A DNA stretch of 64,000 bases, taken from Fusicatenibacter saccharivorans. GTDB lineage: Bacteria > Bacillota > Negativicutes > Veillonellales > Dialisteraceae. Below are positions 18,934-54,157 of the stretch, one piece after another. The stretch lies in assembly GCA_963597545.1 (NCBI GenBank), contig CAVBQN010000002.1, positions 35,897 to 99,896 on the forward strand, read 5' to 3'. The position numbers and the translations under genes were made by a program. The first letter of the stretch is position 1. Every line of letters starts with the position of its first letter. The notes below the pieces were generated by a model. The model was not told the DNA's origin. It did no database searches and worked only from the letters and a program-made list of their open reading frames with translations.

Positions 18934-18934
18934 A

Positions 18935-20736: not shown

Positions 20737-20761
20737 AAGATCTCCTTCAAGCACATATCAT

Positions 20762-32419: not shown

Positions 32420-32459
32420 ACAATTTGATCCTGTAAATAAGAGATGGTGTAAAGTTTTT

Positions 32460-32710
32460 GGGGATTAGTTTTTTACGTATTCTCATTTCGAGCTGAGGCG
32501 AGAAATCTCACTTGCAGACAGCGAAACGGCGAGTGCAAAACGACCGCTAGACGATGCTCTAAGGCGTCTCTTCTGCATAGTCGCACAGGTGCGGATAACC
32601 GCAGTGCAAGAAAGATCCCTCCACTTCGGTCGGGATGACGGATACGAGAAAAAACCGTCTGCCATCTGATGTTTCTCTAATCCCTAGTCACCAGTCCCCA
32701 GCCACTACAA
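32460..32710. repeat. composite intergenic element (inverted pair of E modules plus heptad array) in the ftsQ-ddl spacer
   Basis: GGGGATTAG (32460); E reversed (32481-32515); E forward (32598-32648); the CTAATCC/CAGTC array at 32675-32710 ends at the ddl stop codon. Confidence 0.85.
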
Positions 32711-33646
32711 TCACACCTTATCCAGCCCCGCTTCGAGGAGAATCTTCTCACAAAGCGCAGGGAACGAGATCCCTGCCGCTGCAGCGGCTTTCGGGACGAG
32801 GCTCGTCGCCGTCATGCCCGGGATGGAATTGGCTTCCAGAAGATGCGGACGGCCTTCGCAGTCAGTCTTGAAGTCGAAACGGCACGCCCCATCACATTCC
32901 GCCATGCGGTAGCCGATTTCTGCGAGACGGCTCATCTCTTCCGCCAGTGCATCCGAAATCGGAGCCGGGACGAGGTAGTCTGTCGCGCCCTTGGTGTACT
33001 TGGAGTGGTAATCATAGGAGCCCGAGTGCGGGCAGATCTGGATGACCGGCAGTGCTTTGCCGTCCAGCACGGAAACGGTGAATTCCTCACCGGACAGGAA
33101 AGCCTCTGCGAGAATCCTTGGCTCTACCGAAAAGACGCGGTCGATCGCCTCTTTCAGATCTTTTTCTTCTTTGACGATCTCGATACCGATGGTCGAGCCT
33201 TCACAGGCTGGCTTCAGGACGACCGGAAGGGTAAAGCTCTTGCCAATGTCCTCTTCGACATTTTCCTTCCCATCCTTCAGATAGTAGGGTTTGGAAAAGG
33301 CCATGGGGAGGCCCGCCTGCTTGAAGAAATGGCTGCTCATGATCTTATCCATGGTGATGGCGCTCGAGGTCACGCCAGAACCCGTGTATGGGATGCGGGC
33401 AAGTTCGAGTACGCTCTGGATGGTGCCATCCTCCCCGTACTTGCCATGCAGCGCGATGAATACGGCATCGGCCTTCGCTTCTTTCAGCTGCTCCACCACA
33501 TGATGCGGATCATATTCCAAAGGAATGGCCTGATAGCCAATGGAAGTCAAGGCTTCTAAAATGGCCTTCCCTGTATTTCTTGAGACTTCTGCCTCTCTGG
33601 AGGGTCCTCCCATGAGGACCACGATTCTGCTCTCTTTAGTAATCAC
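32711..33646 (-). CDS. ddl: D-alanine--D-alanine ligase
   Basis: VLMGGPSREAEVS N-terminus with an ATP-grasp core. GTG start overlaps the murC stop (GTGA). Confidence 0.93.
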   Translation of the reverse strand: MITKESRIVVLMGGPSREAEVSRNTGKAILEALTSIGYQAIPLEYDPHHVVEQLKEAKADAVFIALHGKYGEDGTIQSVLELARIPYTGSGVTSSAITMDKIMSSHFFKQAGLPMAFSKPYYLKDGKENVEEDIGKSFTLPVVLKPACEGSTIGIEIVKEEKDLKEAIDRVFSVEPRILAEAFLSGEEFTVSVLDGKALPVIQICPHSGSYDYHSKYTKGATDYLVPAPISDALAEEMSRLAEIGYRMAECDGACRFDFKTDCEGRPHLLEANSIPGMTATSLVPKAAAAAGISFPALCEKILLEAGLDKV

Positions 33647-35037
33647 TTTTTCAACCCTTTATCCTTCACCAACTGAATGAGTTCTTCCCCTGCGCGGTAA
33701 ATGCTGCCGGCGCCCATGGTGATGATCATATCTCCCGGCTTTACGAAATCATAAAGTGCCTGAGATACGCCTTCCACGGTATCCACATAGTGGATCTCTT
33801 TCTCCGGCAGACGCTTGTGAACCAGCGAGGGGATCAGGTGTCCGTCGACGCCTTCGATCGGTGCCTCACTTGCCGCATAGATATCGGTGAAGAAGAGTAC
33901 ATCCGCATCATCAAAGGCTTCGGCAAACTCCTGCTGCAGCAGCTGCGTGCGGGAATAGCGATGCGGCTGGAAGGCACAGATGATGCGATGATCGCCTGTC
34001 TCTCTCGCTGCTTTCAGAGTTGCTTTGATTTCCGTCGGATGGTGTGCATAGTCATCGACCACCCAAAGATCATTTTCTCTGGACTTCGTCTCGAAGCGAC
34101 GCTTCACTCCCACGAAATGAGACAGCGCCGTCTCGATCGTTTCCATCGGGATGCCGCAGTAGAGCGCTGCGATCACAGCTCCCAGCGCATCACGGATATT
34201 ATGCGAGCCCGGGATCTGCAGCTCGATGGTGCCGAGCGTCTTACCCTCATGCACCACATCGAAAAGAAGATGCCTGTTTTCGTATCGCTTGTTCACGGCC
34301 CGATAGTCAGCTTTTTCATTGAGCCCGTAGGTGATGCAGGTCTTATGGATCTCGGGCAGGATCGCGCATACGCCCTCACTGTCGGTGCATACGATGGCGA
34401 CGCCGTCCTCGTAGCAGATATGGCTGATGAATTCGGAAAAGGCACGACGGATATTTTCGACGCTGCCATAATGATCCAGATGGTCATCCTCGATATTCGT
34501 CACCACTGTCATATAGGGGGAAAATTTCAGGAAAGAGCCGTCGCTTTCATCCGCTTCCGCGATGACATACTCGCCTTTTCCGAGGCAGGAATTTCCTCCG
34601 ATATAGCTGGCTGCCGCTCCGAGAACGATCGTCGGATCTTTGCCCGCTTCATAGAAAATCTGGCCCACCATGGCAGAGGTCGTGGATTTCCCATGTGCGC
34701 CTGCGACTGCGATGCCTTTGCCCCAGTGGAACATGGCTGCCAGCACATCGGAGCGATGGAACACGGGAATGCCAAGACGTCTCGCTTCCACGAGCTCCGG
34801 ATTTTCTTCGGAAATCGCCGAAGAAATGACCACGCAGTCAGCACCCCTTACATGAGAGGCTTCATGCCCGATATAAATCTCTGCGCCTTTTTTTCGGAAA
34901 TCGCGCAGGAAGGGAGAGTCTGCTACATCGGAACCGGAAATGCGATCCCCCTTGTCCAGCAGAATGACGGCCAGCGCACGCATGCCCATACCGCCGATCC
35001 CTATAAAATGGAATGTATGATACTTCGTGAGGTCCAT
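33643..35037 (-). CDS. murC: UDP-N-acetylmuramate--L-alanine ligase
   Basis: FIGIGGMGM and GAHGKSTT motifs, 464 aa. Confidence 0.95.
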   Translation of the reverse strand: MDLTKYHTFHFIGIGGMGMRALAVILLDKGDRISGSDVADSPFLRDFRKKGAEIYIGHEASHVRGADCVVISSAISEENPELVEARRLGIPVFHRSDVLAAMFHWGKGIAVAGAHGKSTTSAMVGQIFYEAGKDPTIVLGAAASYIGGNSCLGKGEYVIAEADESDGSFLKFSPYMTVVTNIEDDHLDHYGSVENIRRAFSEFISHICYEDGVAIVCTDSEGVCAILPEIHKTCITYGLNEKADYRAVNKRYENRHLLFDVVHEGKTLGTIELQIPGSHNIRDALGAVIAALYCGIPMETIETALSHFVGVKRRFETKSRENDLWVVDDYAHHPTEIKATLKAARETGDHRIICAFQPHRYSRTQLLQQEFAEAFDDADVLFFTDIYAASEAPIEGVDGHLIPSLVHKRLPEKEIHYVDTVEGVSQALYDFVKPGDMIITMGAGSIYRAGEELIQLVKDKGLKK

Positions 35038-35049
35038 AATCGTCTTCCT

Positions 35050-36156
35050 TTATTTAATGAGCGACAGTGCAAGTCTTGCGATATCCTCTCCGGCATGCAC
35101 TTTTTTCAAAGTGCCGATGGACTTCTCCATCGTCTGAAGGGCTTCGGGATGCTCGCGAAGCGCTGTGATATTTTCGATGAATTTGGCGCCAGAGACGTCC
35201 TTATCCAGGATCATCTTCGCCGCGCCCGCCTCAGAAAAGACGCGGGCATTGTATGTCTGGTGATCCTCCGCCGCATAGGGATACGGGATCAGGATGGCCG
35301 GCAGCTCTCTCGCTGCGACCTCCGCCAGACTGATGGCTCCCGCGCGGCAGATGATGAGATCGGCCGCCGCCAGTGCATTCGGCATATGGTACTCATAGCG
35401 GATGATGCGGCTCGCAGAACCGTAATGCCCATCCTCCTCGCAGCCGAGTGCGCTCGTGATCTTGTCATACTCCAGCTCGCCCGTCACATGGTAAAGGCAC
35501 AGGTTCTTCGCATCCTTGAAATGGCGATGCACATCCAGCATCGCAGTATTGATCGTCCTCGCTCCGCGGCTGCCGCCGGTGACCAGTACCATGAAGGTAT
35601 CCGGCGAAAGCCCGAGTGCCTTGCGGGATGCCTCCCGCTTGGCTTCCATGATGTCAGGACGGATCGGATTTCCTGTATAGATGCATTTCTCAGGATGCGG
35701 GAAACGGGATCCGGCTGCTTCATAGCCCAGCGCGATCTTATCGACCACGCGGGAAAGGATCTTATTCGTGATCCCCGGGATCACATTCTGCTCCTGAATC
35801 AGCGTCGGGATATGAGAGAGCGCTGCCGCCATCAGGATCGGCCCGCATACATAGCCGCCCGTCCCGATGACTACGTCCGGCGCGAAATCTTTCAGAATCC
35901 GGCGCGCTTTGAACAGGCTGCCTGCAGTACGACACAGGATACCGATATTTTCCAGCGTCAGCTTCCGCTTCAGGCCCGAAGCCGGCAGCGAGGCGAAACG
36001 ATACCCTTCTTTCGGAATGATACGTGACTCCATCCCATTCGGCGTGCCCACGAAAAGAAATTCTGTTTCTTCCAGTTTTGCTATTTCTTTAGCAATGGTG
36101 ATGGCCGGGTAAATATGTCCCCCCGTACCGCCGCCAGATAAAATAACCCGTTTCAT
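35050..36156 (-). CDS. murG: undecaprenyldiphospho-muramoylpentapeptide beta-N-acetylglucosaminyltransferase
   Basis: SGGGTGGHIYPA motif, 368 aa. Confidence 0.95.
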   Translation of the reverse strand: MKRVILSGGGTGGHIYPAITIAKEIAKLEETEFLFVGTPNGMESRIIPKEGYRFASLPASGLKRKLTLENIGILCRTAGSLFKARRILKDFAPDVVIGTGGYVCGPILMAAALSHIPTLIQEQNVIPGITNKILSRVVDKIALGYEAAGSRFPHPEKCIYTGNPIRPDIMEAKREASRKALGLSPDTFMVLVTGGSRGARTINTAMLDVHRHFKDAKNLCLYHVTGELEYDKITSALGCEEDGHYGSASRIIRYEYHMPNALAAADLIICRAGAISLAEVAARELPAILIPYPYAAEDHQTYNARVFSEAGAAKMILDKDVSGAKFIENITALREHPEALQTMEKSIGTLKKVHAGEDIARLALSLIK

Positions 36157-36202
36157 GAATGATACATTCTCCCATGTTGATGGTCTGTAAATGATAATTG
36201 GA

Positions 36203-36540
36203 AAGGTTTAAGGATTCAAGGTTCAGGGTTCAGGGTTAGCCCACGGGGCATGCTGTCCTTGATTACGTTTGAAAGCCTCGATTGAATTAGAAATTAGAAA
36301 TGGTGGTGCGGCGCATAAAAATACAGAAGCGCCGCGGAAGTTTGAAACTAGCGGTTTTCTCGCATCGCAAACCTAATCCCTAGCTACTAATCCCTAGCTA
36401 CCAGTCACAAGTCACCAGTCACTCATACCTGCTTTCAAACTTTAGGGTTCAGGATCGTGGAGGCGGCTTCGCCGCAAATATATAACTCCGCGGCGCTTTC
36501 TAATTTTAAGCGCCGCACCACCACCCTGAACCCTGAACCC
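36203..36540. repeat. 338-bp imperfect palindrome made of two inverted composite units (murG-murD spacer)
   Basis: The left arm runs GGTTCAG repeats, W (36236-36284), AATTAGA x2, K (36302-36343), L, then a heptad array (36372-36423). The right arm carries reverse K (GCGCCGCACCACC) and CCCTGAACCCTGAACCC (36524-36540). Confidence 0.9.
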
Positions 36541-36587
36541 ATTATTTCCTGAACAGGAAAATGAGCGAATCCTCGATTTCCCTTTTC

Positions 36588-37934
36588 TCAAAGCCCCTTA
36601 ACGATTTTCTTGAAATCCATGCCGCGCTCTTCCATATTCTTATACATATCGAAAGAGGAGCAGGCCGGTGAAAGGATGACGACATCCCCCGGTTTCGCCA
36701 GCTTCTGTCCGAGGAGGACGGCCTCTTTCATAGAGGATACGCGGTGGATCGAAGAGACGCCCGCCTCTCTGGCCGCTTCCTCGAAACGCTCAGCCGCAGC
36801 GCCCAAAAGGATGAGCTCTTTCGTATGACGGCGCACGACCTGCATGAAATCAGAAAGAGGCGTCCCCTTATCATGGCCGCCGGCGATCAGGATGACCGGC
36901 TTGTCGAAGGCTTCCATGCCTTTGACGGCTGCATCAGTATTCGTGGCCTTGGAGTCATTGTAGTACGATACGCCATCCAGCTTGCGAACAAATTCGATGC
37001 GGTTCGGAAGAGCGGCGAAGGTCTTCAACGCCTCTATGATGACCGCCGTGTCGACGCCGCCCTCATGTGCCAGGAAAGCAGCCGCCAGGCAGTCCTCGAT
37101 ATTCTGTTTCCCCTTCAGCAAGAGCTCACCTGCCGTGCAGAGAGGAATGGTTTCTCCCCTTCTCTTCAGCACGAGACGGTCACCGGAGAGGCATGCGCCT
37201 TCCTCGACCCCGTGCGAGGTAGAGAGCAGACACACATGGGTGTGCGCTTCCGCCTGCTTTTTAAGCATCGGCGTATAGGGATCATCCGCATTCAGAAGGA
37301 TGCAGTTTGTTTCGTCCATATTTTCAAAAATGCGTGCCTTGGCTGCCACGTAGGCCTCCATGGTGTGATGACGCTCCAGATGGTCGGGCGTGATATTCAG
37401 GATGACCGCCGCCTTCGGCTGGAAATGGGTGATGAATTCCAGCTGGAAGCTCGAAACTTCCGCTGCGATCAGCCCGTTCTCCGGCACCAGCTCGGCTTCG
37501 CGGGAAAGGGAGATCCCCAGATTTCCTGCCAGAGCAAAGGGCCTCCCTGAGTGCGAGAGCATGCTGCCTAACAGCGTCGTGGTCGTGGTTTTCCCATTCG
37601 TCCCCGTGATGGCAAGGATCGGCGCCTTCGTCACGCGAAAGGCCAGCTCGACTTCGCTCAGGACAGGGATACCCCGCTTCATCGCCCCCTGGATCACGAC
37701 ATTTTCCGCCGGGATGACAGGAGAAACGACGACGGCATCCATCCCGTCCAAAAGGCTCTCCGACTGCGCGCCGAAGCAGAACTCCGCCCCGAGCCCGATG
37801 AGCTCTTCTTTTTCTTTTGTATTCTGTATCTGATCTTTCAGATCTGAAATCACGACATGGGCTCCATGACGGAGAAGTACATGGGCTGCGCCAAGGCCGC
37901 TGATGCCGGCGCCCAGAATCAATACATTTTTCAA
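36588..37934 (-). CDS. murD: UDP-N-acetylmuramoylalanine--D-glutamate ligase
   Basis: LGAGISGLGAA and GTNGKTTT motifs. TTG at 37934 (GGGAGG 5 nt upstream) preferred; the ORF-track ATG at 37961 has no RBS. Confidence 0.92.
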   Translation of the reverse strand: MKNVLILGAGISGLGAAHVLLRHGAHVVISDLKDQIQNTKEKEELIGLGAEFCFGAQSESLLDGMDAVVVSPVIPAENVVIQGAMKRGIPVLSEVELAFRVTKAPILAITGTNGKTTTTTLLGSMLSHSGRPFALAGNLGISLSREAELVPENGLIAAEVSSFQLEFITHFQPKAAVILNITPDHLERHHTMEAYVAAKARIFENMDETNCILLNADDPYTPMLKKQAEAHTHVCLLSTSHGVEEGACLSGDRLVLKRRGETIPLCTAGELLLKGKQNIEDCLAAAFLAHEGGVDTAVIIEALKTFAALPNRIEFVRKLDGVSYYNDSKATNTDAAVKGMEAFDKPVILIAGGHDKGTPLSDFMQVVRRHTKELILLGAAAERFEEAAREAGVSSIHRVSSMKEAVLLGQKLAKPGDVVILSPACSSFDMYKNMEERGMDFKKIVKGL

Positions 37935-37972
37935 AGCATACCTCCCATGATAGTAAAACATGGATAGTCGAA

Positions 37973-38107
37973 GGGGACTGGTGGCTAGTGACTAGTAGCC
38001 AGGGATTAGGAATCGGCGCGGAAAGCATCCGATTTCATACATCATCTCGCCGTCTCTTAGTCTCTTAGTCTTCAGTCTTTAGTCTCCCAGTCTCCTAGTC
38101 TCTCAGT
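37973..38107. repeat. composite element with opposed period-7/8 arrays (murD-mraY spacer)
   Basis: GGGGACTGGTGGCTAGTGACTAGTAGCCAGGGATTAGGAAT (37973-38013) is the reverse orientation of the CTAATCC/CAGTCAC array. A (C)TNAGTCT x8 array (38052-38107) runs into the mraY stop codon. Confidence 0.85.
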
Positions 38108-39076
38108 CTATGGCAGTGCATAGATTGCCAGCATCAGGCTGCCTGCCGCGGCGAGGCCCTCGAAGATCCAGAAGGACCAGACGACACGGACTTCGCTCCA
38201 GCCGGACAGTTCGAAATGATGGTGCAGCGGACTCATCTTGAAGACACGCTTGCCCGTTGTTTTGAAAGAAATGACCTGAATGATGACAGATAAGGCTTCC
38301 AGCACAAAAATCAGTCCGAGAAAGGCGAGCAGCAGCTCTGTCCGGGTCATGACCGAAATCCCGGCAATGGCTCCGCCGAGGGCGAGCGAGCCGGTATCCC
38401 CCATGAAGACCTTGGCCGGGTGATAATTGAAGAAAAGGAATCCAATGCAGGCCCCTGCCAGAATGATGATGAAATAGCCGAGGTCATGAAATCCTGTCAT
38501 ATAGCAGAAGACCGCATAGGCCGTAAAAGCGATGACGCAGCAGCCGGAAGCCAGCCCGTCCAGTCCATCCGTCAGGTTCACCGCATTCGAAGCCCCCACG
38601 ATGACAAGGACAACGAAAGGATAGTACAAAAGTCCGATGGAAATATCCATCGTCGTGAATGGGATCGCGATCGAGTACGGCAGGTGCAGGGTATCGACGA
38701 CGCCCCAGCAGAAGAGCACGGCGAGGATCAGCTGCCCCAGCATTTTCTGCTTGGCGGTCAGCCCCAGATTTCTTTTCTTTTCCGCCTTGATAAAGTCATC
38801 GAGAAATCCTAAAAGCCCATGCCCCAGCGTCAGGAAAAGGAGCCAGAGGACCGATGGATCCAAGAGGCGATTGAAGAGGACCACCAGTACCATCGCTGTC
38901 AGCATGAAGAGCCCGCCCATGGTCGGTGTGCCGCTCTTGGCCCGATGAGACTTCGGTCCTTCGGTGCGGATCGACTGGCGCGCCTTCAATTTTTTCAAAA
39001 GCGGAATGCCCACCCATCCGCAGATGATGGTGAGAACCGCTGCTTCCAGCAGGTATATACAATAATTACTTTCCAT
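38108..39076 (-). CDS. mraY: phospho-N-acetylmuramoyl-pentapeptide transferase
   Basis: Polytopic membrane protein with NAVNLTDGLDGLA and HHHFE motifs. Overlaps the murF stop. Confidence 0.95.
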   Translation of the reverse strand: MESNYCIYLLEAAVLTIICGWVGIPLLKKLKARQSIRTEGPKSHRAKSGTPTMGGLFMLTAMVLVVLFNRLLDPSVLWLLFLTLGHGLLGFLDDFIKAEKKRNLGLTAKQKMLGQLILAVLFCWGVVDTLHLPYSIAIPFTTMDISIGLLYYPFVVLVIVGASNAVNLTDGLDGLASGCCVIAFTAYAVFCYMTGFHDLGYFIIILAGACIGFLFFNYHPAKVFMGDTGSLALGGAIAGISVMTRTELLLAFLGLIFVLEALSVIIQVISFKTTGKRVFKMSPLHHHFELSGWSEVRVVWSFWIFEGLAAAGSLMLAIYALP

Positions 39077-40466
39077 CCTTTGTCAGAACTCCCCTCAAGA
39101 GCATTGGTACTTTTTCCATATGCATATAGTGCGAACCCTTCACCAGCACGGCATCACCGGCTTTGGCCAGAGACGCCAGCTTCTCGGCAGCCTCTTCACA
39201 GGTCTCATACGAGAAAACAGACGTCATGCCGCCCTCTTTGGCACTGGAAGCCAGATGGTGAGAGAGAGGTCCCACCGTGATGAGGCCGTCAAACCCCATG
39301 GCGGCGGCTTTCTTTCCCGTCTCACGGTGCAGCGCCTCTTCCATCTCGCCCAGCTCTCCCATATCGCCCAGCACCAGATAATGATGCGAAGCGGGGATCT
39401 GCTTCAGCGAGCCGAAGGCCATTTCCATGGAGAGCGGATTCGCATTGTACGAGTCATCCATGACGGAAATCCCTGCGATGGTAAGCAGTGTCTGCCGCTG
39501 ACCGATCGGATGGAAATCCGCAAATGCTTTTTGAATTTTCCGGCTGTCCACGCCAAGGACGCGGGCTGCCGCGATGGCGGCCAGCGCATCGTAGACATTG
39601 TGTACGCCGAGAAGATGGAGCTTCACGCGGAATGCTTCATCAAAAGACGTGCAGATGAACTGGGTATGCGAAGCCTCATAGCGCACATCTGTCCCGCGGA
39701 CGGTATAGCGCCCTTCGAGGCCATAGGAAATCACACGCCCCTCGAAGCCGTCCCCCATCGCTTTGACGAAGGGGTCGTCTCCATTCAGGATCGCTGTGCC
39801 ATCCTTCGGCAGTGCTTCGATCAGCTCGGCCTTCGCCTTCGCGATATTTTCCTGACTGCCCAGGATCCCGATATGCGATGTGCCGACATTGGTCACGATA
39901 CCGATGGTCGGGCTGGCGATCGCACAAAGCTCTGCGATCTGGCCGAAGCCGCGCATCCCCATTTCTACGACGCAGACTTCCGTCTCTTTTGTCATCGAGA
40001 GAAGCGTCATGGAAAGACCGATCTCATTATTGAAATTCTTCTGTGTCGCACAGACATGAAAACGAGACGACAGGAGCGCTGTCGTCATGTCTTTCGTCGT
40101 TGTTTTTCCATTAGATCCCGTGATGCCGATCACCGGCACATGGAAACGCATACGGTGAAAATGGGCAAGATCTTCCAGTGCCTTCTTCGTATCCTTTACA
40201 AGAAACGCCGATACATCGGAAGGCAGCTCCGCGGCAAAAGAAGCATCCGAAAGGATGACCCCCGAAGCCCCTCCTTCGCACGCCTTTTTCAGAAAGGCAT
40301 GCCCATCAAAATTTTCTCCTTTAAGAGCCAGAAACAGATTCCCCGTCTCGATCGTGCGGGTATCGGTACTGACCCCGTCCATAGACGGCTCCCTGCCGCG
40401 CTGGAGCAATGACGCCCCGCAGGCTCTTTCTATTTCTTCTATCGTAAATGAAGCCATGAATTTCAC
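39066..40466 (-). CDS. murF: UDP-N-acetylmuramoyl-tripeptide--D-alanyl-D-alanine ligase
   Basis: GITGSNGKTTTK motif and Mur ligase domains, 466 aa. Confidence 0.94.
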   Translation of the reverse strand: MKFMASFTIEEIERACGASLLQRGREPSMDGVSTDTRTIETGNLFLALKGENFDGHAFLKKACEGGASGVILSDASFAAELPSDVSAFLVKDTKKALEDLAHFHRMRFHVPVIGITGSNGKTTTKDMTTALLSSRFHVCATQKNFNNEIGLSMTLLSMTKETEVCVVEMGMRGFGQIAELCAIASPTIGIVTNVGTSHIGILGSQENIAKAKAELIEALPKDGTAILNGDDPFVKAMGDGFEGRVISYGLEGRYTVRGTDVRYEASHTQFICTSFDEAFRVKLHLLGVHNVYDALAAIAAARVLGVDSRKIQKAFADFHPIGQRQTLLTIAGISVMDDSYNANPLSMEMAFGSLKQIPASHHYLVLGDMGELGEMEEALHRETGKKAAAMGFDGLITVGPLSHHLASSAKEGGMTSVFSYETCEEAAEKLASLAKAGDAVLVKGSHYMHMEKVPMLLRGVLTKDGK

Positions 40467-40497
40467 TCCTTCAGTAGTTTACCCAAAAGCGAAGTGC

Positions 40498-42000
40498 CTA
40501 TGCCTGCTTCAGCGCTTTCCTCGCTTCTTCCCTATCGTCGAAATGAATGGTCTTATCTTTCAGGATCTGGTAGTCTTCATGGCCCTTGCCGGCGATGAGG
40601 ACGATATCGTCTCCCTTGGCGAGGGAAATCGCCTTCTGAATGGCGCTTCTTCTGTCGACCACCACTTCCACCTGCAGAGACGGCTTCTCCGCCTTCACTT
40701 CTTCGACACCGGCTGCCACTTCTTTCACAATGGTCTCCGGGTCTTCCGTGCGCGGATTATCACTGGTCACGATCGCCACATCCGCATAGCGGGCAGCGAT
40801 GCGTCCCATGATCGGGCGTTTCAGCTTGTCGCGGTCACCGCCGCAGCCGAAAACGACCAGGATGCGGCCCTTCGTGATCTCCTGCGCCGTCGTCAGGATC
40901 TTCTCAAGACCATCCGGGGTATGCGCGTAGTCGACCACGACAGTGAAGGACTGGCCCTCATCGATCAGCTCGAAACGACCCGGCACGCTGTGGAATGTCT
41001 TCATGGCAGCCACAATGGTTTCCATGGAAATCCCTTCGGAAAGCGCCGCGCCGATCGCGCCCAGTGTATTATAAATATTGAAACGGCCCGCCAGCTTCGT
41101 TTCCAGCTGGTAGGTCTTCCCTTCATAAGTCACCTTGAAAGCGGAAGACTTACCGGTGAACTGACTGTCAAAGGCATACAGATCCGCCGTCTTGTCACTC
41201 ATGCTGTAGGTGTGAAGATCCGCCACCTTCTGGTCGACAGCATCCATCATCACATGGGCATACGGGTCATCCACATTCACCCACGCCGACTTATTCCCCT
41301 TCGTCTGTCCTGCGGAAGATACCTTCTCGAAAAGGATGGCCTTGGCTTTCGCATAGTTGTCCATCGTCTTATGATAGTCCAGATGGTCTTCCGTGAGGTT
41401 CGTGAAGACAGCATTGTCAAACTCCACGCCCTCGACGCGCCCCATGACGAGCGAATGGGAAGACACTTCCATGCACACATGGGTGACCTCTTCTTCTACC
41501 ATCTGCCAGAGCAGACGTTCCAGATCAATGACATCCGGTGTAGTATTGTGCGTCGGCAGCTCCTTATCCCCGATCAGGGCGTGGATGGTGCCGATGACAC
41601 CCGTCTTGTAGCCCGCCTGCTCAAGGATATGGCTCACGACATGGGTCGTGGTGGTCTTGCCATTCGTCCCCGTAAGCGCGATCATACGCATCTTGCGTGC
41701 CGGATAGTCAAAGAAAAACGGCACCATATCTTCCATCGCTTTTCTGGTATCTGCCACATAGATGACAGCGACCCCTTCCGGTACCTCGACCTCTTTGGAA
41801 GCCACGATGACTTTCGCCCCCAGCTCCACGGCAGAGCCTACGAACCGATGTCCATCCACATGCGCCCCTTCGAGGCAGAAGAAAAGGCTGCCCTCTTTCA
41901 CCTGCCGCGAGTCCGCTGTCACATCCAAAATTTCAATATCTGTGTCGCCTTCTGTGCGAAGGACCGGCGTTGTTTTCAGTAATTCTGCTAATTTTTTCAA
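40498..42000 (-). CDS. murE: UDP-N-acetylmuramoyl-L-alanyl-D-glutamate--2,6-diaminopimelate ligase
   Basis: LTGTNGKTTT and the DNPR motif (meso-DAP type). TTG at 42000 (AGAGGTG upstream; MKKLAELL) preferred over the ORF-track GTG at 42039. Confidence 0.92.
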   Translation of the reverse strand: MKKLAELLKTTPVLRTEGDTDIEILDVTADSRQVKEGSLFFCLEGAHVDGHRFVGSAVELGAKVIVASKEVEVPEGVAVIYVADTRKAMEDMVPFFFDYPARKMRMIALTGTNGKTTTTHVVSHILEQAGYKTGVIGTIHALIGDKELPTHNTTPDVIDLERLLWQMVEEEVTHVCMEVSSHSLVMGRVEGVEFDNAVFTNLTEDHLDYHKTMDNYAKAKAILFEKVSSAGQTKGNKSAWVNVDDPYAHVMMDAVDQKVADLHTYSMSDKTADLYAFDSQFTGKSSAFKVTYEGKTYQLETKLAGRFNIYNTLGAIGAALSEGISMETIVAAMKTFHSVPGRFELIDEGQSFTVVVDYAHTPDGLEKILTTAQEITKGRILVVFGCGGDRDKLKRPIMGRIAARYADVAIVTSDNPRTEDPETIVKEVAAGVEEVKAEKPSLQVEVVVDRRSAIQKAISLAKGDDIVLIAGKGHEDYQILKDKTIHFDDREEARKALKQA

Positions 42001-42184
42001 AACAGTCACCTCTGGTTTTGTATGTAGGAAACAAGACACCCGTACTGCCGGATGTCATCCGCTTCCTGTACTATATGAGTATTCTATGAGTCGTGCTTTT
42101 GAAATCATCATGGCATGAGCTTTCACCTCCGTCAGAGACGACGCTCGAATGCCACTCATTATATTAGCTTAAAACTATGGCAAG

Positions 42185-42540
42185 CACAAGGGGCTGTGAA
42201 AGATGAAATTTCATTTTCACAGCCCCTTTCTTGTGTAGTTCACTACTATCGCCTTATTTTGGGGAACGCATTGATTCATTTTGAGTAAGGTTCAATGGGT
42301 ACAACGGGTTCAACGGAGATGGTGCGGCGCATTTCGTCATCCTGAGCGGAGAAAAACGTCGTATGTTAAAAAATGGCTTATCTGAAATAATGAGAACTGA
42401 GTCGAAGGATCTAAGCGCCGCAGAGTTTTTAAGGAACCGTTATTTCCCCCAAATGGCAATGCCATTAAGGAAACATCATTGCCCAAAATGGGAAACCCGT
42501 TGAACCTTTTGACCCCTCAGAACCTTCCGAACCCATTTCT
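42185..42540. repeat. composite element: T hairpin (copy 1) plus GGTTCAA-type arms flanking a K module that carries a split E module (murE-ftsL spacer)
   Basis: T hairpin at 42188-42228. GGTTCAATGGGTACAACGGGTTCAACGG (42289-42316) faces CCGTTGAACC...GAACC (42498-42533). The K stem GGTGCGGCGC...GCGCCGCAG (42320-42424) encloses GTCATCCTGAGCGG / TGAGTCGAAGGATCT. Confidence 0.8.
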
Positions 42541-42924
42541 CTATCTCCCTTTATTCGGGTGCGGTTTGGCGGGATCCGCGCTGCCGTAGACCGCACGGAC
42601 AGGCAGGCTCATCTTGAGCTTCTGCTCTGCGATCTGCTGAATGCGTACCGGTGCCTCCAGACGGGACACTTCGAGCTTATCCACGGCATTCTCCTTCGCC
42701 ATCGTCATGACCTCGCTGCGAATCCGCTGCATTCTATATTCCTCTTGAATATTGATACCATTCAGGAAGACCAGCAGCATCACAGGAAGAAGAATCATCA
42801 ACGTCCCTAGAATGATGTCATGGAAAAAATAGGAAGAATCAGACTTTTCGCGCTCGATCCGTCGAGGCGCGACGCTTTCCGGCATCGACGGCATGTAACC
42901 CATGACTTGCACATCCTGTACCAT
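42541..42924 (-). CDS. ftsL: cell division protein FtsL
   Basis: 127 aa. One TM (ILGTLMILLPVMLLVFL), a coiled region and an FtsL-like RIQQIAEQKLKM motif. Follows rsmH. AGGAG RBS. Confidence 0.75.
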   Translation of the reverse strand: MVQDVQVMGYMPSMPESVAPRRIEREKSDSSYFFHDIILGTLMILLPVMLLVFLNGINIQEEYRMQRIRSEVMTMAKENAVDKLEVSRLEAPVRIQQIAEQKLKMSLPVRAVYGSADPAKPHPNKGR

Positions 42925-42960
42925 ACGATATCTCCTATCTTTGATCCGACTCTATATCTC

Positions 42961-43225: not shown

Positions 43226-44158
43226 CTACACCCTTTCCACGACGCGAAGAACAGCACTCCTCGCACGCGGATTCTCCTCGATTTCCTTCGCGCTCGGCTT
43301 TTGCGCCTTGCCGACGGACTTCACCAGACGATGGTGGTGGCACACACAAACAGGCAGCTCCGGCGGGCAGATGCAGTCCCTTTCCATTTCTTTGAAAGTT
43401 TTCTTGATGATGCGGTCTTCCAGCGACTGGAACGTGATGACGCCGACGCGTCCCCCCACTTTCAGGTGGGAAACGCAGGCTTCCATCGTGTCTTTCAAGA
43501 TTCCCAGCTCATTATTTACCTCGATGCGGATCGCCTGAAATGTGCGCTTCGCGGGGTGCGGGCCATTTCTTCTAGCATGCGCCGGAATGGCCGCCTTGAT
43601 GACCGAGACCAGATCATCCGTCGTCTCGATGGGCTTCTTCTCGCGGAATTCGCAGATAAACTGCGCGATCCGCTTCGCCCATCGCTCTTCTCCATACTCC
43701 CAGATGATGCGCGCAAGCTCTTCCTCTTCATAGGTATTCACGATCTCATACGCCGTGCGCGGATTTCTCTGATCCATTCGCATATCGAGCTTTCCATTAT
43801 TCATATAAGAGAAGCCACGGCTGCCATCATCGAGCTGATGAGAAGAAACCCCCAGATCGAAAATGAAGCCATCGACCTTCTCTATATTGAGCGATGCCAG
43901 AATGTCATGGATGTGAGAAAAATTATCCCGTACCAGAAGATGACGGCAGGCACAACCGGAAAGGCGCTGAGAAGCCGCCTCGATCGCTTCTTCATCCTGA
44001 TCGACGCCGATCAGAAGCGCATCCGGAGCGAGCTTCTCCGCCATAGCGAAAGAATGCCCGCCGCCCCCTAAGGTACAGTCGACATAAATGCCATGAGGAT
44101 CCGTCAGGATCCGGTCGATCATTTCGTGCAGAAGCACGGTGGTGTGTTGAAATTCCAT
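43226..44158 (-). CDS. rsmH: 16S rRNA (cytosine1402-N4)-methyltransferase
   Basis: HTTVLLHE, TLGGGGHS and DLGVSSHQLD motifs. ATG at 44158 chosen; the ORF-track extension runs into a repeat element. Confidence 0.95.
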   Translation of the reverse strand: MEFQHTTVLLHEMIDRILTDPHGIYVDCTLGGGGHSFAMAEKLAPDALLIGVDQDEEAIEAASQRLSGCACRHLLVRDNFSHIHDILASLNIEKVDGFIFDLGVSSHQLDDGSRGFSYMNNGKLDMRMDQRNPRTAYEIVNTYEEEELARIIWEYGEERWAKRIAQFICEFREKKPIETTDDLVSVIKAAIPAHARRNGPHPAKRTFQAIRIEVNNELGILKDTMEACVSHLKVGGRVGVITFQSLEDRIIKKTFKEMERDCICPPELPVCVCHHHRLVKSVGKAQKPSAKEIEENPRARSAVLRVVERV

Positions 44159-44175
44159 AAATAAGTCCTCGAAAA

Positions 44176-44560
44176 AAGGTTCAGGGTTCAGGGGTAGCCT
44201 GTGGGTCGTGCCGTTCCTTGATTGGGGATGAAAGCTTCGCATAAATTAGGAATTAGGAATGAGGAATTAGGAATGAAGGTGGCGGCTTCGCCGCAGAGTA
44301 TAAATAGGGCGATGCCCGAAGGCGGTATTCAAGTCACTAGTCACCAGTCACTAGTCACTCTAATCCCCAATCCCTAATACCTAGCTACTCATCCCTGCTT
44401 TCAAACTTCAGGGTTCAGGGTTAGCCCCTGGGGCGTGACGTCCCTTGATTGTGAATGAAAGCTTTGCTCGAATGAGAAATGAGAAACGAGAAATAGCGGT
44501 CTCTCGTTTCGCAAACCTAATCCCCAGCTACTAATCCCTAGCCACCAGTCACCAGTCACT
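44176..44560. repeat. two tandem composite units (rsmH-mraZ spacer)
   Basis: Unit 1 is 44176-44389 and unit 2 is 44390-44560. Each has GGTTCAGGGTTCAGGG, W, an AAT[TG]AG[GA] heptads block, a K/L core, then a GTCAC/CTAATCC array. The junction reads CATCCCTGCTTTCAAACTT. Confidence 0.9.
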
Positions 44561-44565
44561 ACAAA

Positions 44566-45000
44566 TCACAGATCAAAATTCAGCGGAAGGTCGAGGGCAT
44601 CCGCGAGTTCTGCGATATCCTCGCCCTCTTCGTCTTGACGCAGGAGCTCCGGATCCCAGATCTCGATGATGGGTCCCGTCCCCACGATGCAGGCTTCCTT
44701 CTTCAGCTGTGCAAATTCACGAAGGTGGGCCGGGATCAGGATGCGTCCCTGACGGTCACACTCCATCTCCGTCCCGCGGCCGATCAGATGACGCATGATC
44801 TTGCGGACATTGCGGTTCGTGAAAGGCAGCTTCTGCAGCCGGGCAATCAAGGCATCCCAGCGTTCTTTCGGATAAATATTGAGGCAGGTATCCAGACTTG
44901 GAGCCAGCACAAAACGACTTCCCAGCTCTTCTCTGAATTTCGCTGGAAGGATCATGCGCCCCTTGGCGTCTATGGTATGAGAATATTCATTCATAAACAT
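44566..45000 (-). CDS. mraZ: division/cell wall cluster transcriptional regulator MraZ
   Basis: MFMNEYSHTIDAKGRMILP plus a second DRQGRILIP SpoVT/AbrB-like half. GGAGG RBS. Five GTGGN operator boxes lie upstream. Confidence 0.93.
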   Translation of the reverse strand: MFMNEYSHTIDAKGRMILPAKFREELGSRFVLAPSLDTCLNIYPKERWDALIARLQKLPFTNRNVRKIMRHLIGRGTEMECDRQGRILIPAHLREFAQLKKEACIVGTGPIIEIWDPELLRQDEEGEDIAELADALDLPLNFDL

Positions 45001-45005
45001 ATCCT

Positions 45006-45049
45006 TCCACCTCCTCCACATTTACCCACATTCTACCACAATCCCCCAC
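45006..45049 (-). promoter_or_regulatory. MraZ operator: five direct GTGGN boxes at 9-10 bp spacing
   Basis: Minus strand reads GTGGGggattGTGGTagaatGTGGGtaaatGTGGAggagGTGGA. On the plus strand these are NCCAC at 45006, 45015, 45025, 45035 and 45045. This matches the published MraZ box pattern (GTGG[GT] repeats on a 10-bp phase) and overlaps the -10. Confidence 0.75.
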
Positions 45050-45059
45050 CCTGTGACAA
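45030..45059 (-). promoter_or_regulatory. candidate sigma-A promoter of mraZ/dcw operon
   Basis: -35 TTGTCA (45054-45059), 18-bp spacer, TG-extended -10 TAGAAT (45030-45035), about 25 nt before the mraZ ATG. Confidence 0.6.
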
Positions 45060-45314
45060 CGAAAATTTTTCAAGCCCATCATTTTCCCATCTGCTGCCCG
45101 TGTATTGATTTTATCGATGTTTTCAGCACCTTCTGCCTGAAATCAAACCACTCCCCGCTATGATTTCTTCCGTTTTTCGAAAAACAGGCAAAATAAAAAA
45201 TCCCCACTCGGGGAATTTTCCTTTCCTGCATGGAAGTTCAGCAGAAGAAACCAAAGGGATTTCCACACATCATGACCTCCTGTGCCCTCAAAGAAAGAAA
45301 GCACTCTCTCAGGT

Positions 45315-45975
45315 GATATGATCCCCCCTAAAGCAGTTTGGTTATTTACCTTGTCTGCTTTAGGGGGATCATATCATTTCGGTTCGTCTTTTTTGTTTGT
45401 TCTTCCCCTTTCCCGTATCCCAAGCCTTCCCCCATGGGGAAGGTGGCGAGCGCAGCGAGCCGGATAGGGTTCTAGCGGCATGAAAACCAGTGGAACGAAA
45501 TAGACAAAGCGTATGTCCTCAAGTACGCCGTTAACGAAAGTACCCTATCCGCCCCTGCGGGGCACCTTCCCCTCTAGGGGAAGGCTGCGATACGAGAATA
45601 CCATCTTCTAAAGAAGCGGTGAAGCCGCCACGAGAGCCCTGAACCCTGAACCAAATGAAAGCAAAGTAAAAAGGGGCTGTGAAGAAATGAGGATTCATTT
45701 CTTCACAGCTCCTTTTTTATTGTCGTATTTTGGATAAAACAGTCTTTCTTCCGTCATCCGCACTTATTTATGCGATGATAGAGTAACAATGCCTTGGCAC
45801 TGCGGTTTCCAGAGAAACTGTTTTTCCGCCGTGCAAGGAAGATCCCTCGGCTTCGCTCGGGATGACGATACGGGGCGGCGCTCGTCCAACATGAGTTTTC
45901 ATCCAGATTTGGAAGCCAACTTCCGCCCCTTCGGGGCACCTCCTTCCAGAGGAAGGAGGTAGAATGTCGCATTAC
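45315..45975. repeat. repeat-dense spacer between mraZ and uvrC (hairpin copy, inverted PG pair, 130-nt duplicated segment, E and PG modules)
   Basis: 21-bp-stem hairpin at 45315-45375. PG reversed (45421-45466) and PG forward (45541-45586). Segment 45589-45718 is duplicated at 54026-54157. E at 45831-45875 and PG at 45915-45965. Confidence 0.9.
45668..45718. terminator. bidirectional terminator-like hairpin (repeat module T, copy 2)
   Basis: AAAAAGGGGCTGTGAAGAAATGA...TCATTTCTTCACAGCTCCTTTTTT. Confidence 0.7.
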
Positions 45976-45984
45976 CCCGTATCA

Positions 45985-47847: not shown

Positions 47848-47870
47848 AAAAGACTCCTGAGAAAAAGAAT

Positions 47871-48338
47871 AAGGGATTAGGGGTTCAGAGGGTTCAGAGG
47901 GTTCAGAGGGTTAAACAGGTTCAGCGGGTTCAACGGGGGTGGTGCAGCGCATCATCATAGGGAAGCGCCGCGGAGTTTTAGAATATATGATATTCACGAA
48001 AGATGAAAAACCTGTGAACCTTTTGAACCTGTTTAACCTATGAGGATTCCTATAACGGGAAGATGGTTATTTTCTGCTTTCAAACTTTTGGGGGTATCCC
48101 TTTCCCTTATCGTCTCGTCATCGAAAGCGCTTCCGATGATTCTTTCTTGCACTGCGGTCAGTATCACATAGGCACTGATACGGAAATGACGCCTCGGTAC
48201 TGCGTATTTCTCCTTTCTCGCATCCTTCGTTTATCGATCTGCAAGAAAGATTTCTCACTTCGCTCGAAATGACGATACGGGGGCTGATGTCTTCTAGTCT
48301 CCTAGTCTAATCCCTAGTCCCTAATCCCCAGCCCCTAG
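47871..48338. repeat. composite element in the uvrC-uvrA spacer
   Basis: GGGATTAGGGG plus (GGGTTCAGA)x3 at 47873-47910. K at 47938-47980. GAACC-type arm at 48010-48045. GCTTTCAAAC at 48076. Truncated reverse E at 48136-48158 and forward E at 48241-48281. The array at 48291-48338 abuts the uvrA stop. Confidence 0.88.
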
Positions 48339-51179: not shown

Positions 51180-51211
51180 GGATGTCCTTTCGAAATTGAA
51201 GGAAAATGTAT

Positions 51212-51506
51212 GGGGGATTTAGGGGAGCCCCTGGGGCGGCTCCCCTTGATTCCATTTGAAAGCCTCGATTGAATGAGAAATGGCTGATAACCGTTGTGCT
51301 ATTGAGATTTCTCGGCTTCGCTCGAAATGACGAGACGAGAGAAGCGATTGTCTTACATACATCGTTTACCTTTCTGCAGAAGGGTGCCTCTTCGAGGCAC
51401 TCTATCCTCCGCCTTTGGCGCGCCCCTTCTTCAAGAGGGCTACTCAGCTGGCAGGGCAAAACGAACCCCTAATCCCTAATCCCCAGCCACCAGTCACTAG
51501 TCACCC
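51212..51506. repeat. composite element in the uvrA-uvrB spacer
   Basis: W at 51222-51271, AATGAGAAAT, E at 51304-51340, a PG-like pair of hairpins at 51372-51440, and the CCCCTAATCCCTAATCCCCAGCCACCAGTCACTAGTCACCC array (51466-51506) 5 nt from the uvrB stop. Confidence 0.88.
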
Positions 51507-51511
51507 AAAAA

Positions 51512-53617
<2,106 letters not shown>

Positions 53618-53657
53618 ACCCTCGCCTCCATTTTCTTTTATCGATATTTGTCTATGT

Positions 53658-53686
53658 ATTATAGCATAGATGGGAAGGGGTGACTA
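53658..53686 (-). promoter_or_regulatory. candidate promoter of uvrB
   Basis: -10 TATAAT (53658-53663), 17-bp spacer, -35-like TAGTCA (53681-53686) contributed by a GTGACTAG repeat fragment. Confidence 0.4.
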
Positions 53687-54157
53687 GGGAGAACGCTCCT
53701 CTCCCACGACTTTCATCCCGCCGCGAGAGCCAACCTCCGCCCTTTCGGGGCACCTCCTTCCATGGGAAGGAGGGAGAATGCCGCCTCACGGACTCCCCAT
53801 ACAGATAGCTTTCGATACGAAAATGCCGCTTCCCCGCATTCGTCATTTCGAGCGAAAGCGAGATATCTTTTTCGTTCGCGGTCAAGGCAAAGTATGTGAG
53901 AGGATCGGCAAGCGGGAAACACCGTACTCCCTGCGCCCCGGAAGGACGGTGTTTCATGCAAACTGATTCACGCATGAAACAGAAAATGGCAAACGAAAAG
54001 ATCCCTCGGCTCCGCTCGGGATGACGATACGAGAATACTATCTTCTAAAAAAAAGGCGGCGAAGCCGCCATCTCAACCCTGAACCCTGAAGCAAATGAAA
54101 GCAAAGTAAAAAGGGGCTGTGAAGAAATGAGAATTCATTTCTTCACAGCCCCTTTTT
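53679..54157. repeat. repeat-dense spacer upstream of uvrB
   Basis: GGTGACTAGGG (53679), PG at 53730-53780, E reversed at 53841-53870, E forward at 53997-54032, and segment 54026-54157, which duplicates 45589-45718 and includes the T hairpin. Confidence 0.88.
54108..54156 (-). terminator. terminator after the hybrid sensor gene (repeat module T, copy 3)
   Basis: Same hairpin as at 45668-45718. It begins 1 nt after the TGA and is followed by a T-run on the minus strand. Confidence 0.8.

Follow-up and report, generated by a model that had tools for sequence, protein, structure and literature searches.

A 64,000-nucleotide stretch of contig CAVBQN010000002.1 was analysed as a whole (hereafter the window), and the subject here is a set of short modular repeats that occupies the spacers of its division and cell wall (dcw) cluster and of the neighbouring uvr genes. 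Every gene between 30.3 and 57.3 kb lies on the minus strand, and transcription runs from a hybrid GGDEF/histidine-kinase sensor gene through uvrB, uvrA, uvrC, mraZ, rsmH, ftsL and murE, continuing with murF, mraY, murD, murG, murC, ddl, ftsQ and ftsZ (names taken from a Pfam scan of the window products and from the Pfam labels of orthologous clusters). The ddl gene occupies 32711-33646, and the gene just below 32420 is ftsQ (Pfam POTRA_1/FtsQ). The closest RsmH proteins with a named source come from Dialister (Veillonellaceae, Negativicutes, by taxonomy look-up), and a matching contig of a metagenome-assembled genome (MAG), L020 in our numbering of comparison loci, is 96.4% identical over 8 kb; by these matches the window DNA is assigned to a gut Dialister of the Negativicutes.

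A preliminary description of this DNA had seen ten spacers between ddl and the sensor gene as built almost wholly from one family of modules. We took a census by pattern searches, self-BLAST and searches for direct and inverted repeats, with arrays called by Tandem Repeats Finder, and all ten spacers proved to carry modular repeats. Identical elements occupy the three corresponding spacers of L020, a sister strain, and the repeats are therefore not an assembly artefact. Repeat coverage, judged by comparison with Dialister loci, is 73-96% in seven spacers but lower in uvrC>mraZ (36%), ftsL>murE (42%) and mraY>murD (60%). Arrays with periods of 7, 8, 9 and 14 fall inside these ten spacers; a 7-nt period had been ascribed to them all, but the TAGTCTC arrays have a period of 8 and many GGTTCAG-type arrays a period of 9. 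Among the other modules we recovered the expected five copies of W (at 36238, 42967, 44196, 44423 and 51226) and three of T, about nine of E in both orientations (at least eight had been counted) and three of L. Where six K and five PG copies had been reported, we found five canonical K copies plus GC-hairpin variants, and two clear PG copies plus two to three diverged ones. A further module, J (GCTTTCAAAC), was recovered as well, and its complement sits inside W. All hairpins of the K, M, L, E and PG types lie between genes.

When the window was compared with 23 Dialister loci, repeat-derived DNA was restricted to spacers of the interval 32468-54157, with the exception of a single 63-bp match at 24.6 kb. 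The other 18 window spacers longer than 100 bp contained no such element (one lone B-type and one lone T-type pattern match), and the probability of ten consecutive positives among 30 spacers is 7e-7. The modules belong to at least four distinct families rather than one; from their sequences, we class these as composite palindromes with a W core, E-bounded elements resembling miniature inverted-repeat transposable elements (MITEs) or REPINs, PG hairpin pairs, and copies of a bidirectional terminator. As had been reported for the window, no transposase was found in it (Pfam scan of 37 gene products). An Rfam search of the 64 kb gave no match at the gathering score and only chance microRNA-type hairpins at E ≤ 1, and no paper was found on Dialister or Negativicutes repeats or on the E sequence strings, in a searchable literature that is incomplete. 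The earlier impression of sequences that recall bacterial interspersed mosaic elements (BIMEs) and BOX yet match no described family thus stands.

One architecture is common to 36 W copies, matched loosely and read on the strand opposite to the flanking genes. The 5' part of the unit consists of [GGTTCAG]n, W, [AATGAGA/AATTAGA]n, the K hairpin and an M or L hairpin, and the 3' part of [YAGTCAC]n, [CTAATCC/CTAGCCA]n and J (CTGCTTTCAAAC). W, the conserved 40-nt core of the unit, reads AGCCCCTGGGGCG-nnnn-GCCCYTTGATT-nCGTTTGAAAGC, and K reads GGTGGTGCGGCGC-loop-AGCGCCGCGRAG; in a variant unit, 9-mers (GGTTCnnnn) replace the AATKAGR array. The AATKAGR array is approximately the complement of the CTAATCC array, A arrays pair with inverted A arrays and J complements the end of W, a complementarity of arms through which units fold into long hairpins, as had been proposed from W and the unit junction. 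In the murD>murG spacer, the partial inverted unit pairs with the unit preceding it to give one giant hairpin (RNA fold z = -7.95). Several other window spacers fold no better than control spacers (z of -1 to -1.5). The elements of L028, a sister species, are cleaner (array, core and inverted array in 130-200 nt), and five of them fold at z = -3.6 to -9.3, with a z of -6 or lower in four. Their array units (TAGTGAT, GAGCTTG, TGAGAAT) are unlike those of the window; however, the window unit TGACTAG rotated by four bases is TAGTGAC, one base off TAGTGAT, and the arrays thus look homologous yet homogenised within each species.

The remaining families are structured as well. Inverted E pairs, 90-130 nt apart in the window, bound three elements of 175-205 bp that fold as DNA at z = -2.6 to -3.5, and among E variants a 5-bp helix is preserved by paired substitutions (ATCCC/GGGAT, ATTTC/GAAAT and ATCCT/AGGAT). 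Module T is a bidirectional terminator with a 20-bp stem. Coordinates are given in Table 1.

Table 1. Repeat elements and associated signals in the window (+ and -, strand;., no strand assigned; A, B, Ct and Cs, types of array).
Position	Strand	Feature	Parts, remarks and basis
32476-32648	.	E-bounded MITE/REPIN-like element, ddl>ftsQ spacer	Inverted E ends 32476-32516 and 32599-32648; folds end-to-end as DNA, z = -2.6
32677-32710	+	Heptamer array Ct/Cs (CTAATCC/CTAGTCA/CCAGTCC)	Repeat search
36203-36440	+	Canonical composite unit, murD>murG spacer	A array 36215-36237, W 36238-36276, B array 36285-36301, K 36305-36337, L 36346-36372, Ct/Cs arrays 36373-36422, J 36429-36440; Tandem Repeats Finder, self-BLAST, repeat search
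36441-36546	-	Partial inverted unit, murD>murG spacer	GC hairpin 36462-36475, inverted K 36488-36519, inverted A array 36523-36540
37973-38010	-	Inverted Ct/Cs heptamer array, mraY>murD spacer	Inverted-repeat search
38045-38109	+	Period-8 array (AGTCTCYY), 7.5 copies, running into mraY stop codon	Tandem Repeats Finder
42188-42228	.	T hairpin variant, ftsL>murE spacer	Sense strand without T-run after the stem; not listed by terminator scan, minus strand
42289-42316	+	Period-9 array (GGTTCAACG)	Pairs with inverted copy 42496-42534; Tandem Repeats Finder, inverted-repeat search
42321-42423	+	K hairpin with loop replaced by long E (~85 nt)	Repeat search, copy alignment
42965-43228	+	Composite unit, rsmH>ftsL spacer, reaching rsmH stop codon	W 42965-42994, 9-mer array 43005-43043, K 43049-43080, S hairpin 43081-43152, L 43149-43175, Ct/Cs arrays 43176-43228; Tandem Repeats Finder, inverted-repeat search
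44173-44406	+	Composite unit 1, mraZ>rsmH spacer	A, W, B array, GC hairpin, M hairpin, Cs/Ct arrays, J
44407-44565	+	Composite unit 2, in tandem with unit 1	A, W, B array, L, Ct/Cs arrays; ends 7 nt from mraZ stop codon
45030-45059	-	Sigma-70 promoter-like site (TTGTCA-18-TAGAAT with TG)	~30 nt upstream of mraZ; outside repeats
45405-45600	.	Inverted PG-type hairpin pair (CTTCCCC..GGGGAAGG), MITE-like	Inverted-repeat search
45599-45720	.	122-nt composite, 86% identical to 54039-54160	GC hairpin, inverted A array 45637-45652, bidirectional terminator T 45668-45717; repeat search, terminator scan
45826-45872	+	Solo E hairpin with conserved flanks (TGCAAGGAAGAT..GACGATACG)	Self-BLAST, repeat search
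45923-45959	+	PG module, two adjacent hairpins	~25 nt after uvrC stop codon; repeat search
47881-48085	+	Array, K and J modules	9-mer array 47881-47935, K 47941-47973, inverted 9-mer array 48009-48039, J 48074-48085
48098-48285	.	E-bounded MITE/REPIN-like element, uvrA>uvrC spacer	DNA fold z = -3.5; 88% identical over 141 nt to L004
48289-48359	+	Period-8 and period-7 arrays	Across uvrA stop codon into last codons; Tandem Repeats Finder
51226-51337	+	W, short B array and E, uvrB>uvrA spacer	W 51226-51263, E 51291-51337; repeat search
51467-51505	+	Ct/Cs heptamer array	Ends 6-8 nt from uvrB stop codon; Tandem Repeats Finder
53658-53686	-	Sigma-70 promoter-like site (TAGTCA-17-TATAAT with TG)	~40 nt upstream of uvrB
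53737-53773	+	PG module	Self-BLAST, repeat search
53827-54031	.	E-bounded MITE/REPIN-like element, sensor>uvrB spacer	Inverted-repeat search; DNA fold z = -3.1
54039-54157	.	Composite of GC hairpin, T8, inverted A array and T	Sense-strand intrinsic terminator 54055-54069, inverted A array 54075-54090, T 54108-54157 (begins at sensor gene stop codon); repeat search, terminator scan

Outside the window, searching 185,579 species-representative genomes for a 22-base W pattern gave 24 stretches in nine genomes, all of them Dialister isolates or MAGs, and W/K units occupy many loci across these nine genomes; confinement to the region of the dcw and uvr genes, against which the preliminary description had cautioned, is not what we observe. 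All 94 period-7 arrays in 277 kb of DNA, about 75% of which is coding, are intergenic. E is distributed differently, and this too speaks against a single family. Its 27-nt core (GATCCCTCGRCTNCGCTCGGGATGACG; for example at 45840-45872 and 53999-54031 of the window) recurs in at least 120 metagenome contigs (L040-L159), with soil, rhizosphere and gut samples among the sources. Among the matches listed, 84 of 120 contigs carry no Dialister-type arrays and range from 37 to 71% GC, and 22 of the 92 non-Dialister copies listed form tight inverted doublets with 10-50-nt spacers, like REPINs. The E core had no Rfam match in the window or at 20 metagenome loci. From these occurrences, E looks like a hairpin of the repetitive extragenic palindrome (REP) kind that is common to many bacteria, whatever enzyme mobilises it. 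In L042 the core occurs once as three tandem copies with a 36-nt period.

An origin in phages or plasmids was rejected: W is absent from IMG/VR, a plasmid search gave no match, and the five K matches among viral contigs consist of full units lying at the edges of the contigs, one beside the start of ssrA, and thus represent the host flanks of prophages. In one IMG/VR contig of 40 kb, L035, a canonical unit lies at about 290-420, at the contig edge and directly upstream of the tmRNA gene start (GGGGATGTACCGGTTTCGACAGG...); L035 is presumably a prophage integrated at ssrA of a Dialister. Many contigs from metagenomes and MAGs (L001-L003, L020, L025, L035, L038 and L039) end in or beside repeats, which probably fragment short-read Dialister assemblies and lead to copies being undercounted in MAGs.

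Orthologous dcw clusters, gathered via RsmH homologues, bear on the history of the spacers. The mraZ>rsmH junction spans 407 bp in the window and 11, 10, 14 and 9 bp in L028, L029, L030 and L031, respectively; the corresponding lengths are 431 versus 16, 11, 13 and 40 bp for murD>murG, and 301 versus 147, 53, 25 and 21 bp for rsmH>ftsL. These short junctions in related Dialister species indicate that the ancestral operon was compact and that the window elements are lineage-specific insertions. None of these elements was found in the spacers of L030 and L031, whose RsmH proteins are 74% and 70% identical to that of the window. In L032, where the mraZ>rsmH flanks are nearly identical to those of the window, a 197-bp spacer holds a different module set (long E present; B array, W and second unit absent), and rsmH>ftsL is 74 bp long and carries no element.

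Closer pairs differ by individual steps. L020 departs from the window only by the loss of 36 bp (four 9-mers, in the 47881-48085 region) and the gain of 14 bp (two heptamers, in the arrays at the uvrA stop codon), and array copy numbers vary freely between strains. Between L019 and L026, a 330-bp element stands in place of 70 bp of unrelated sequence. L024 carries the S hairpin as a clean insertion of 58 bp, a longer insert of 92 bp with the same beginning occupies the site in L011, and L017 has no insert. The orthologous comparisons called for earlier thus do reveal presence/absence polymorphism, but target-site duplications were absent at mraZ>rsmH, in L019/L026, in L024/L011 versus L017, and in L032. 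At 42321-42423, where E had been described as split inside a K, it is rather K that is split, with a long E in its loop. This composite recurs at 90-95% identity in L006, L008, L018 and L027, while in L009 and L019 the K loop holds a long E-type insert in the opposite orientation and with a different internal sequence; the presence of both orientations points to insertion into hairpin loops.

In most alignable comparisons, the sequence of the elements changes slowly while their structure changes fast. Aligned spacer DNA of the window and L020 is 97.8% identical (26 mismatches in 1176), compared with 89.7% at four-fold sites of uvrA, uvrB and uvrC (113 mismatches in 1094; Fisher p = 1e-16), such that point substitutions are ~5x rarer in the elements than at synonymous sites. 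Three other orthologous comparisons agree (alignable element DNA 97-98%, four-fold sites 83-94%), L008/L027 show the opposite (93.6% versus 95.3%), and two further comparisons cover only 54-58 nt. Identity collapses where modules have been swapped between strains. Slow substitution together with fast structural turnover fits gene conversion among the many copies, purifying selection on the predicted hairpins, or both.

Placement was measured in 58 element-bearing spacers between co-directional genes, called with our own codon-usage gene caller trained on the window genes. The median distance from the stop codon to the first module is 13 nt (at most 10 nt in 27 spacers, with the module meeting the coding end in 14), and the last module ends a median of 87 nt, and at minimum 16 nt, before the next start (Wilcoxon p = 3e-7), in keeping with the earlier statement that elements begin at the stop codon and spare the ribosome-binding site (RBS). 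The uvrA stop codon is itself part of a repeat unit (TGA followed by CTAG), and the last residues of UvrA differ from those in L028. In 31 of 55 stop-side arrays every sense frame contains a stop codon, versus 15 of 55 on the other strand. On the sense strand, G exceeds C in stop-side arrays (38:16) and C exceeds G in those on the start side (34:4; Fisher p = 1e-8). This G-arm-first polarity matches the 'convergent' pairs reported in Xanthomonas; being the same on both strands of a palindrome, it says nothing on gene orientation. The asymmetric units do carry that information: they lie antisense to the flanking genes 30:9 (26:9 without orthologous duplicates; p = 0.006), and W alone does so 25:4. 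Relative to the leading strand inferred from GC skew, units are distributed 21:18, the skew of an 8-kb locus being a noisy proxy. Replication-coupled orientation, as in single-strand transposition of the IS200/IS605 type, was set aside since orientation tracks gene direction and not this noisy proxy.

Not all of the spacers are internal to an operon, as had been assumed when co-transcription of the repeats was proposed. Strong sense-strand terminators follow the sensor gene (54110-54155, with a 20-bp stem and A-/T-runs, then GGCGGCTTCGCCGCC with T8 at 54055-54069) and uvrC (45676-45709 and 45195-45221, with the 20-bp stem of T and its A-/T-runs at 45670-45715), and a motif scan placed good sigma-70 promoter-like sites in front of uvrB and mraZ. 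The mraZ promoter-like region is conserved in L001-L003, L028, L029 and L032. With a terminator plus a promoter-like site each, sensor>uvrB and uvrC>mraZ are transcription-unit boundaries rather than intra-operon spacers. In spacers within operons, terminator-like hairpins were limited to weak ones (L at 43154-43171 and 44483-44510). Read antisense to the genes, W presents a GC stem with a T-rich tail, TTGATTnnnTTT, behind it, and at 42974 and 44430 it was picked up by the terminator scan.

Among known systems, REP/BIME and the heptamer arrays of Xanthomonas and Nostoc come closest, with BOX, Correia and TAACTGA repeats more distant. REPs and BIMEs of E. coli and other enterobacteria are likewise short, imperfect, extragenic palindromes in alternating orientation, combined with other motifs in variable order; they too lie just after stop codons and between co-transcribed genes, lack target duplications and receive insertions in their loops. 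K, M, L, E and PG fit the definition of REPs as short (20-40 nt), imperfect, extragenic palindromes in many copies. The Dialister elements differ in having no sequence similarity to REPs and in their arms of tandem 7-9-nt arrays, which are absent from BIMEs; no GTAG-type 5' foot appears in the copy listings (the K foot is GGTGGTGCGGCGC, the E foot CGTCATCCC), and no RAYT gene was found in the DNA examined (37 window products). IS1397 targets REP loops, IHF and gyrase bind BIMEs, and REP/BIME sequences act as mRNA 3' stabilisers or weak terminators. REPs ≤15 nt from a stop codon reportedly affect translation, a result ascribed to Liang, Rudd & Deutscher in 2015.

The second close relative comprises the G-rich tandem heptamers GGGAATC of Xanthomonas and GGGGA(C/T)T, or STRR, of Nostoc and other cyanobacteria (Rehm et al. 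2015, PMC4692102). In both those systems and ours, arrays are almost all intergenic, mostly between co-directional open reading frames (ORFs) and nearer the upstream one; the G-rich strand is coding after a stop codon and non-coding before a start, convergent inverted pairs that could form stem-loops are frequent, unit number varies among relatives, and there is no tie to gene function or insertion sequences. Unlike them, the Dialister arrays form arms around the conserved cores W, K, L and J, include 8- and 9-nt periods, and occur in another phylum, the Bacillota (Negativicutes). Pneumococcal BOX is also modular, intergenic and non-coding, with a variable number of internal units and a stable predicted structure, but its modules are 45-59 nt long in the fixed order A-B-C, in contrast to Dialister units of 7-9 nt in several orders and both orientations, and there is no sequence similarity. 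Correia and ERIC/IRU elements share a length of 150-250 bp, terminal inverted repeats (here the E-bounded elements and the inverted 10-mers of J/W), co-transcription and long hairpins; Correia differ in a duplicated TA target and fixed ends, whereas no duplication accompanies the Dialister elements in three filled-versus-empty comparisons. The TAACTGA repeats of Beggiatoaceae, cyanobacteria and Bacteroidetes, for which binding of S1 or Csp was proposed in Beggiatoa (MacGregor 2015, PMC4679880), are intergenic heptamer direct repeats as well (2-43 copies, patchy phylogeny, spread mechanism unexplained), but they precede start codons by no more than a few nucleotides and hardly ever occur inverted, while Dialister arrays are stop-side and form inverted pairs. 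Module T simply has what defines an intrinsic terminator, a GC-rich stem and a T-run after a gene. The Dialister sequences are thus undescribed repeats of a known bacterial kind, not a new kind of system.

We therefore favour, with a probability of roughly 0.6, that the elements are non-coding, non-autonomous palindromic repeats of the REP/BIME-BOX-MITE kind, selfish or near-neutral, that have expanded in one gut Dialister clade. Family membership, distribution, recent insertion, turnover, placement and orientation are directly observed; how copies are made, and what if anything they do to transcripts, we infer. Pieces would have been copied, by one route or another, into a dcw operon that was originally compact and among the uvr genes beside it. 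The leading candidates for the route are a single-strand transposase of the HUH type and recombination between copies, given that no target duplications were seen, that hairpin loops serve as targets and that E forms REPIN-like doublets. Copies would be retained only where harmless, between a stop codon and the next RBS or behind a terminator, and mostly in the orientation that transcription tolerates, with selection as the presumed cause. Once in place, the elements are remodelled, as the comparisons show: array units are gained and lost by slipped-strand events, whole modules are replaced or lost by recombination with other copies, which would also keep copies alike, and one element inserts into the hairpin loop of another. 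By analogy with REP/BIME, the elements probably place stable stem-loops just behind an upstream cistron, which would protect its 3' end, cause partial termination or pausing, or admit an RNase, and would thereby loosen the coupling of adjacent cistrons.

Several observations weigh against this interpretation. The ten filled spacers are adjacent while the rest of the window is free (P = 7e-7), which simple random insertion followed by selection does not explain. Junk would drift at the synonymous rate, so that gene conversion or purifying selection is needed to account for the slow substitution. No transposase or other mobilising enzyme was identified, and neither target duplications nor fixed ends were seen; mobility is accordingly read from distribution only. 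The orientation and distance statistics depend on our own gene caller and on loci chosen for containing W, and the orientation bias and stop-codon placement could equally well go with a function.

Such a function might lie in the transcript. The elements would then be selected cis-acting devices (attenuators, RNase III/Y sites or 3' stabilisers) that set the ratios of dcw and uvr cistrons, and W would be a weak terminator facing antisense transcription. Consistent with this, orientation follows transcription and not skew-inferred replication, elements adjoin the stop codon and spare the RBS, substitutions are rarer than at synonymous sites, strong sense terminators are found at unit boundaries and not in within-operon spacers, and the W stem, with its antisense T-rich tail, tolerates 23 G.U cells on that strand only. 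However, a role as structured RNA, suggested earlier, found no backing in the folding tests. W consists of invariant primary-sequence blocks (GCC..GG.C, TTGAT and GAA) and shows no covariation: no pair has changes on both sides, RNAalifold finds only a trivial GCCC/GGGC stem, and an alternative stem, GGGGC/GYCCY, was rejected in that its 97% pairing is equalled by shuffled controls. Sense folding is better than antisense in 28 of 51 spacers (p = 0.94), and several window spacers fold like controls. Moreover, the same junction is empty or differently filled in near-identical strains and in sister species, indicating that no particular junction needs its element. We regard transcript devices as unlikely, if the least unlikely of the alternatives. 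Quite unlikely, too, is the more general proposition that heptamer-armed palindromes are a selected, transcription-oriented intercistronic device, placed at stop codons, held by purifying selection and tuning essential operons by a rule that crosses phyla. If true, it would supply a general principle for intergenic heptamer palindromes across phyla, with the G-rich arm first beside the upstream stop, as in Xanthomonas and cyanobacteria.

The polarity of the arrays also bears on G-quadruplex (G4) formation, in which they would be G4-forming heptamer repeats of the Xanthomonas GGGAATC and Nostoc GGGGAYT kind, acting as G4 or i-motif in DNA or RNA near gene ends. Their geometry fits that of Rehm et al. 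2015 (co-directional ORFs, coding G-rich strand on the stop side and non-coding on the start side, convergent pairs), the units GGGATTA and GGGGACT resemble the Nostoc consensus, and canonical four-tract motifs are intergenic in 20 of 21 cases, with 11 of the 15 in co-directional spacers antisense and near a start. Yet there are only 21 such motifs in 235 kb, three of them in the window, and the YAGTCAC, AATGAGA and AGTCTCYY arrays and the TAGTGAT arrays of L028 lack G3 tracts. As most Dialister units do, G4 cannot be their common property; we rejected it as a general explanation. It would leave the conserved W, K, L and E modules unexplained, and the polarity, identical on both palindrome strands, is uninformative on gene orientation. 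The G4 account is improbable. Least probable of all is that arrays and W are protein sites, for an RNA binder of the CsrA, S1 or Csp type on a 7-nt register or for a DNA or nucleoid protein: the invariant, non-covarying blocks of W are what a sequence-specific protein site or a site recognised by a transposase would show, the elements are better conserved than synonymous sites, AGGGA occurs in the sense-strand GGGAUUAG units and regulator binding was proposed for heptamer repeats by MacGregor 2015, but units differ between arrays and species at one junction (TGACTAG; TAGTGAT in L028; GAGCTTG; TGAGAAT), which argues against one sequence-specific reader, copy numbers vary among strains, and, for CsrA, arrays lie on the stop side, ≥16 nt from starts and away from the RBS where CsrA-type repression acts, most of them (CAGTCAC, AATGAGA and 9-mer arrays) without ANGGA, and close strains carry different modules at the same junction.

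A common human gut and oral genus carries a dense and apparently undescribed repertoire of repeats, in a third phylum for intergenic heptamer-array palindromes, and the contigs that end in or near repeats make fragmented assemblies a plausible consequence. A compact essential operon can evidently absorb hundreds of base pairs at its cistron junctions if the insert falls between stop codon and RBS. Being mostly slower than synonymous sites yet structurally changing, the elements offer a tractable system for weighing gene conversion against selection, and, should the proposed transcript effects be real, dcw and uvr expression would be shaped by strain-variable repeat content.

The spacer upstream of mraZ also varies in its neighbours. 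The gene 5' of mraZ is uvrC in the window and L028, but L001-L003, which encode an identical MraZ, have DUF2922/DUF1659 genes there, L032 a restriction-modification/helicase block, and L029 and L034 a tRNA-synthetase-family gene (PF00749); the repeat-rich spacer (45001-45984) appears to be a rearrangement breakpoint. In L029 (Dialister sp. CP181256), a 1.7-kb spacer upstream of mraZ (7855-9552) contains three tandem repeats of ~380 bp, each holding long E-type hairpin pairs. A 107-aa ORF (53652-53975, minus strand) lies entirely within the sensor>uvrB spacer on the sense strand; with no Pfam family and poor codon usage it was rejected as a real small gene, and it is probably repeat-derived.

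The dcw clusters of the clade (window 30347-45000; L028-L031 and L034) have no ftsI/pbp between ftsL and murE and no ftsW between murD and murG, and in the window ftsA is missing between ftsQ and ftsZ. A search for tRNA and tmRNA genes found none. Elsewhere in the window, a low-GC block at 16501-24608 (40-46%, versus ~53%), in which none of the repeats and no transposase was found, encodes a TonB-dependent receptor, an ABC ATPase, a periplasmic binding protein and a LysR regulator, and is probably an acquired iron-uptake island.

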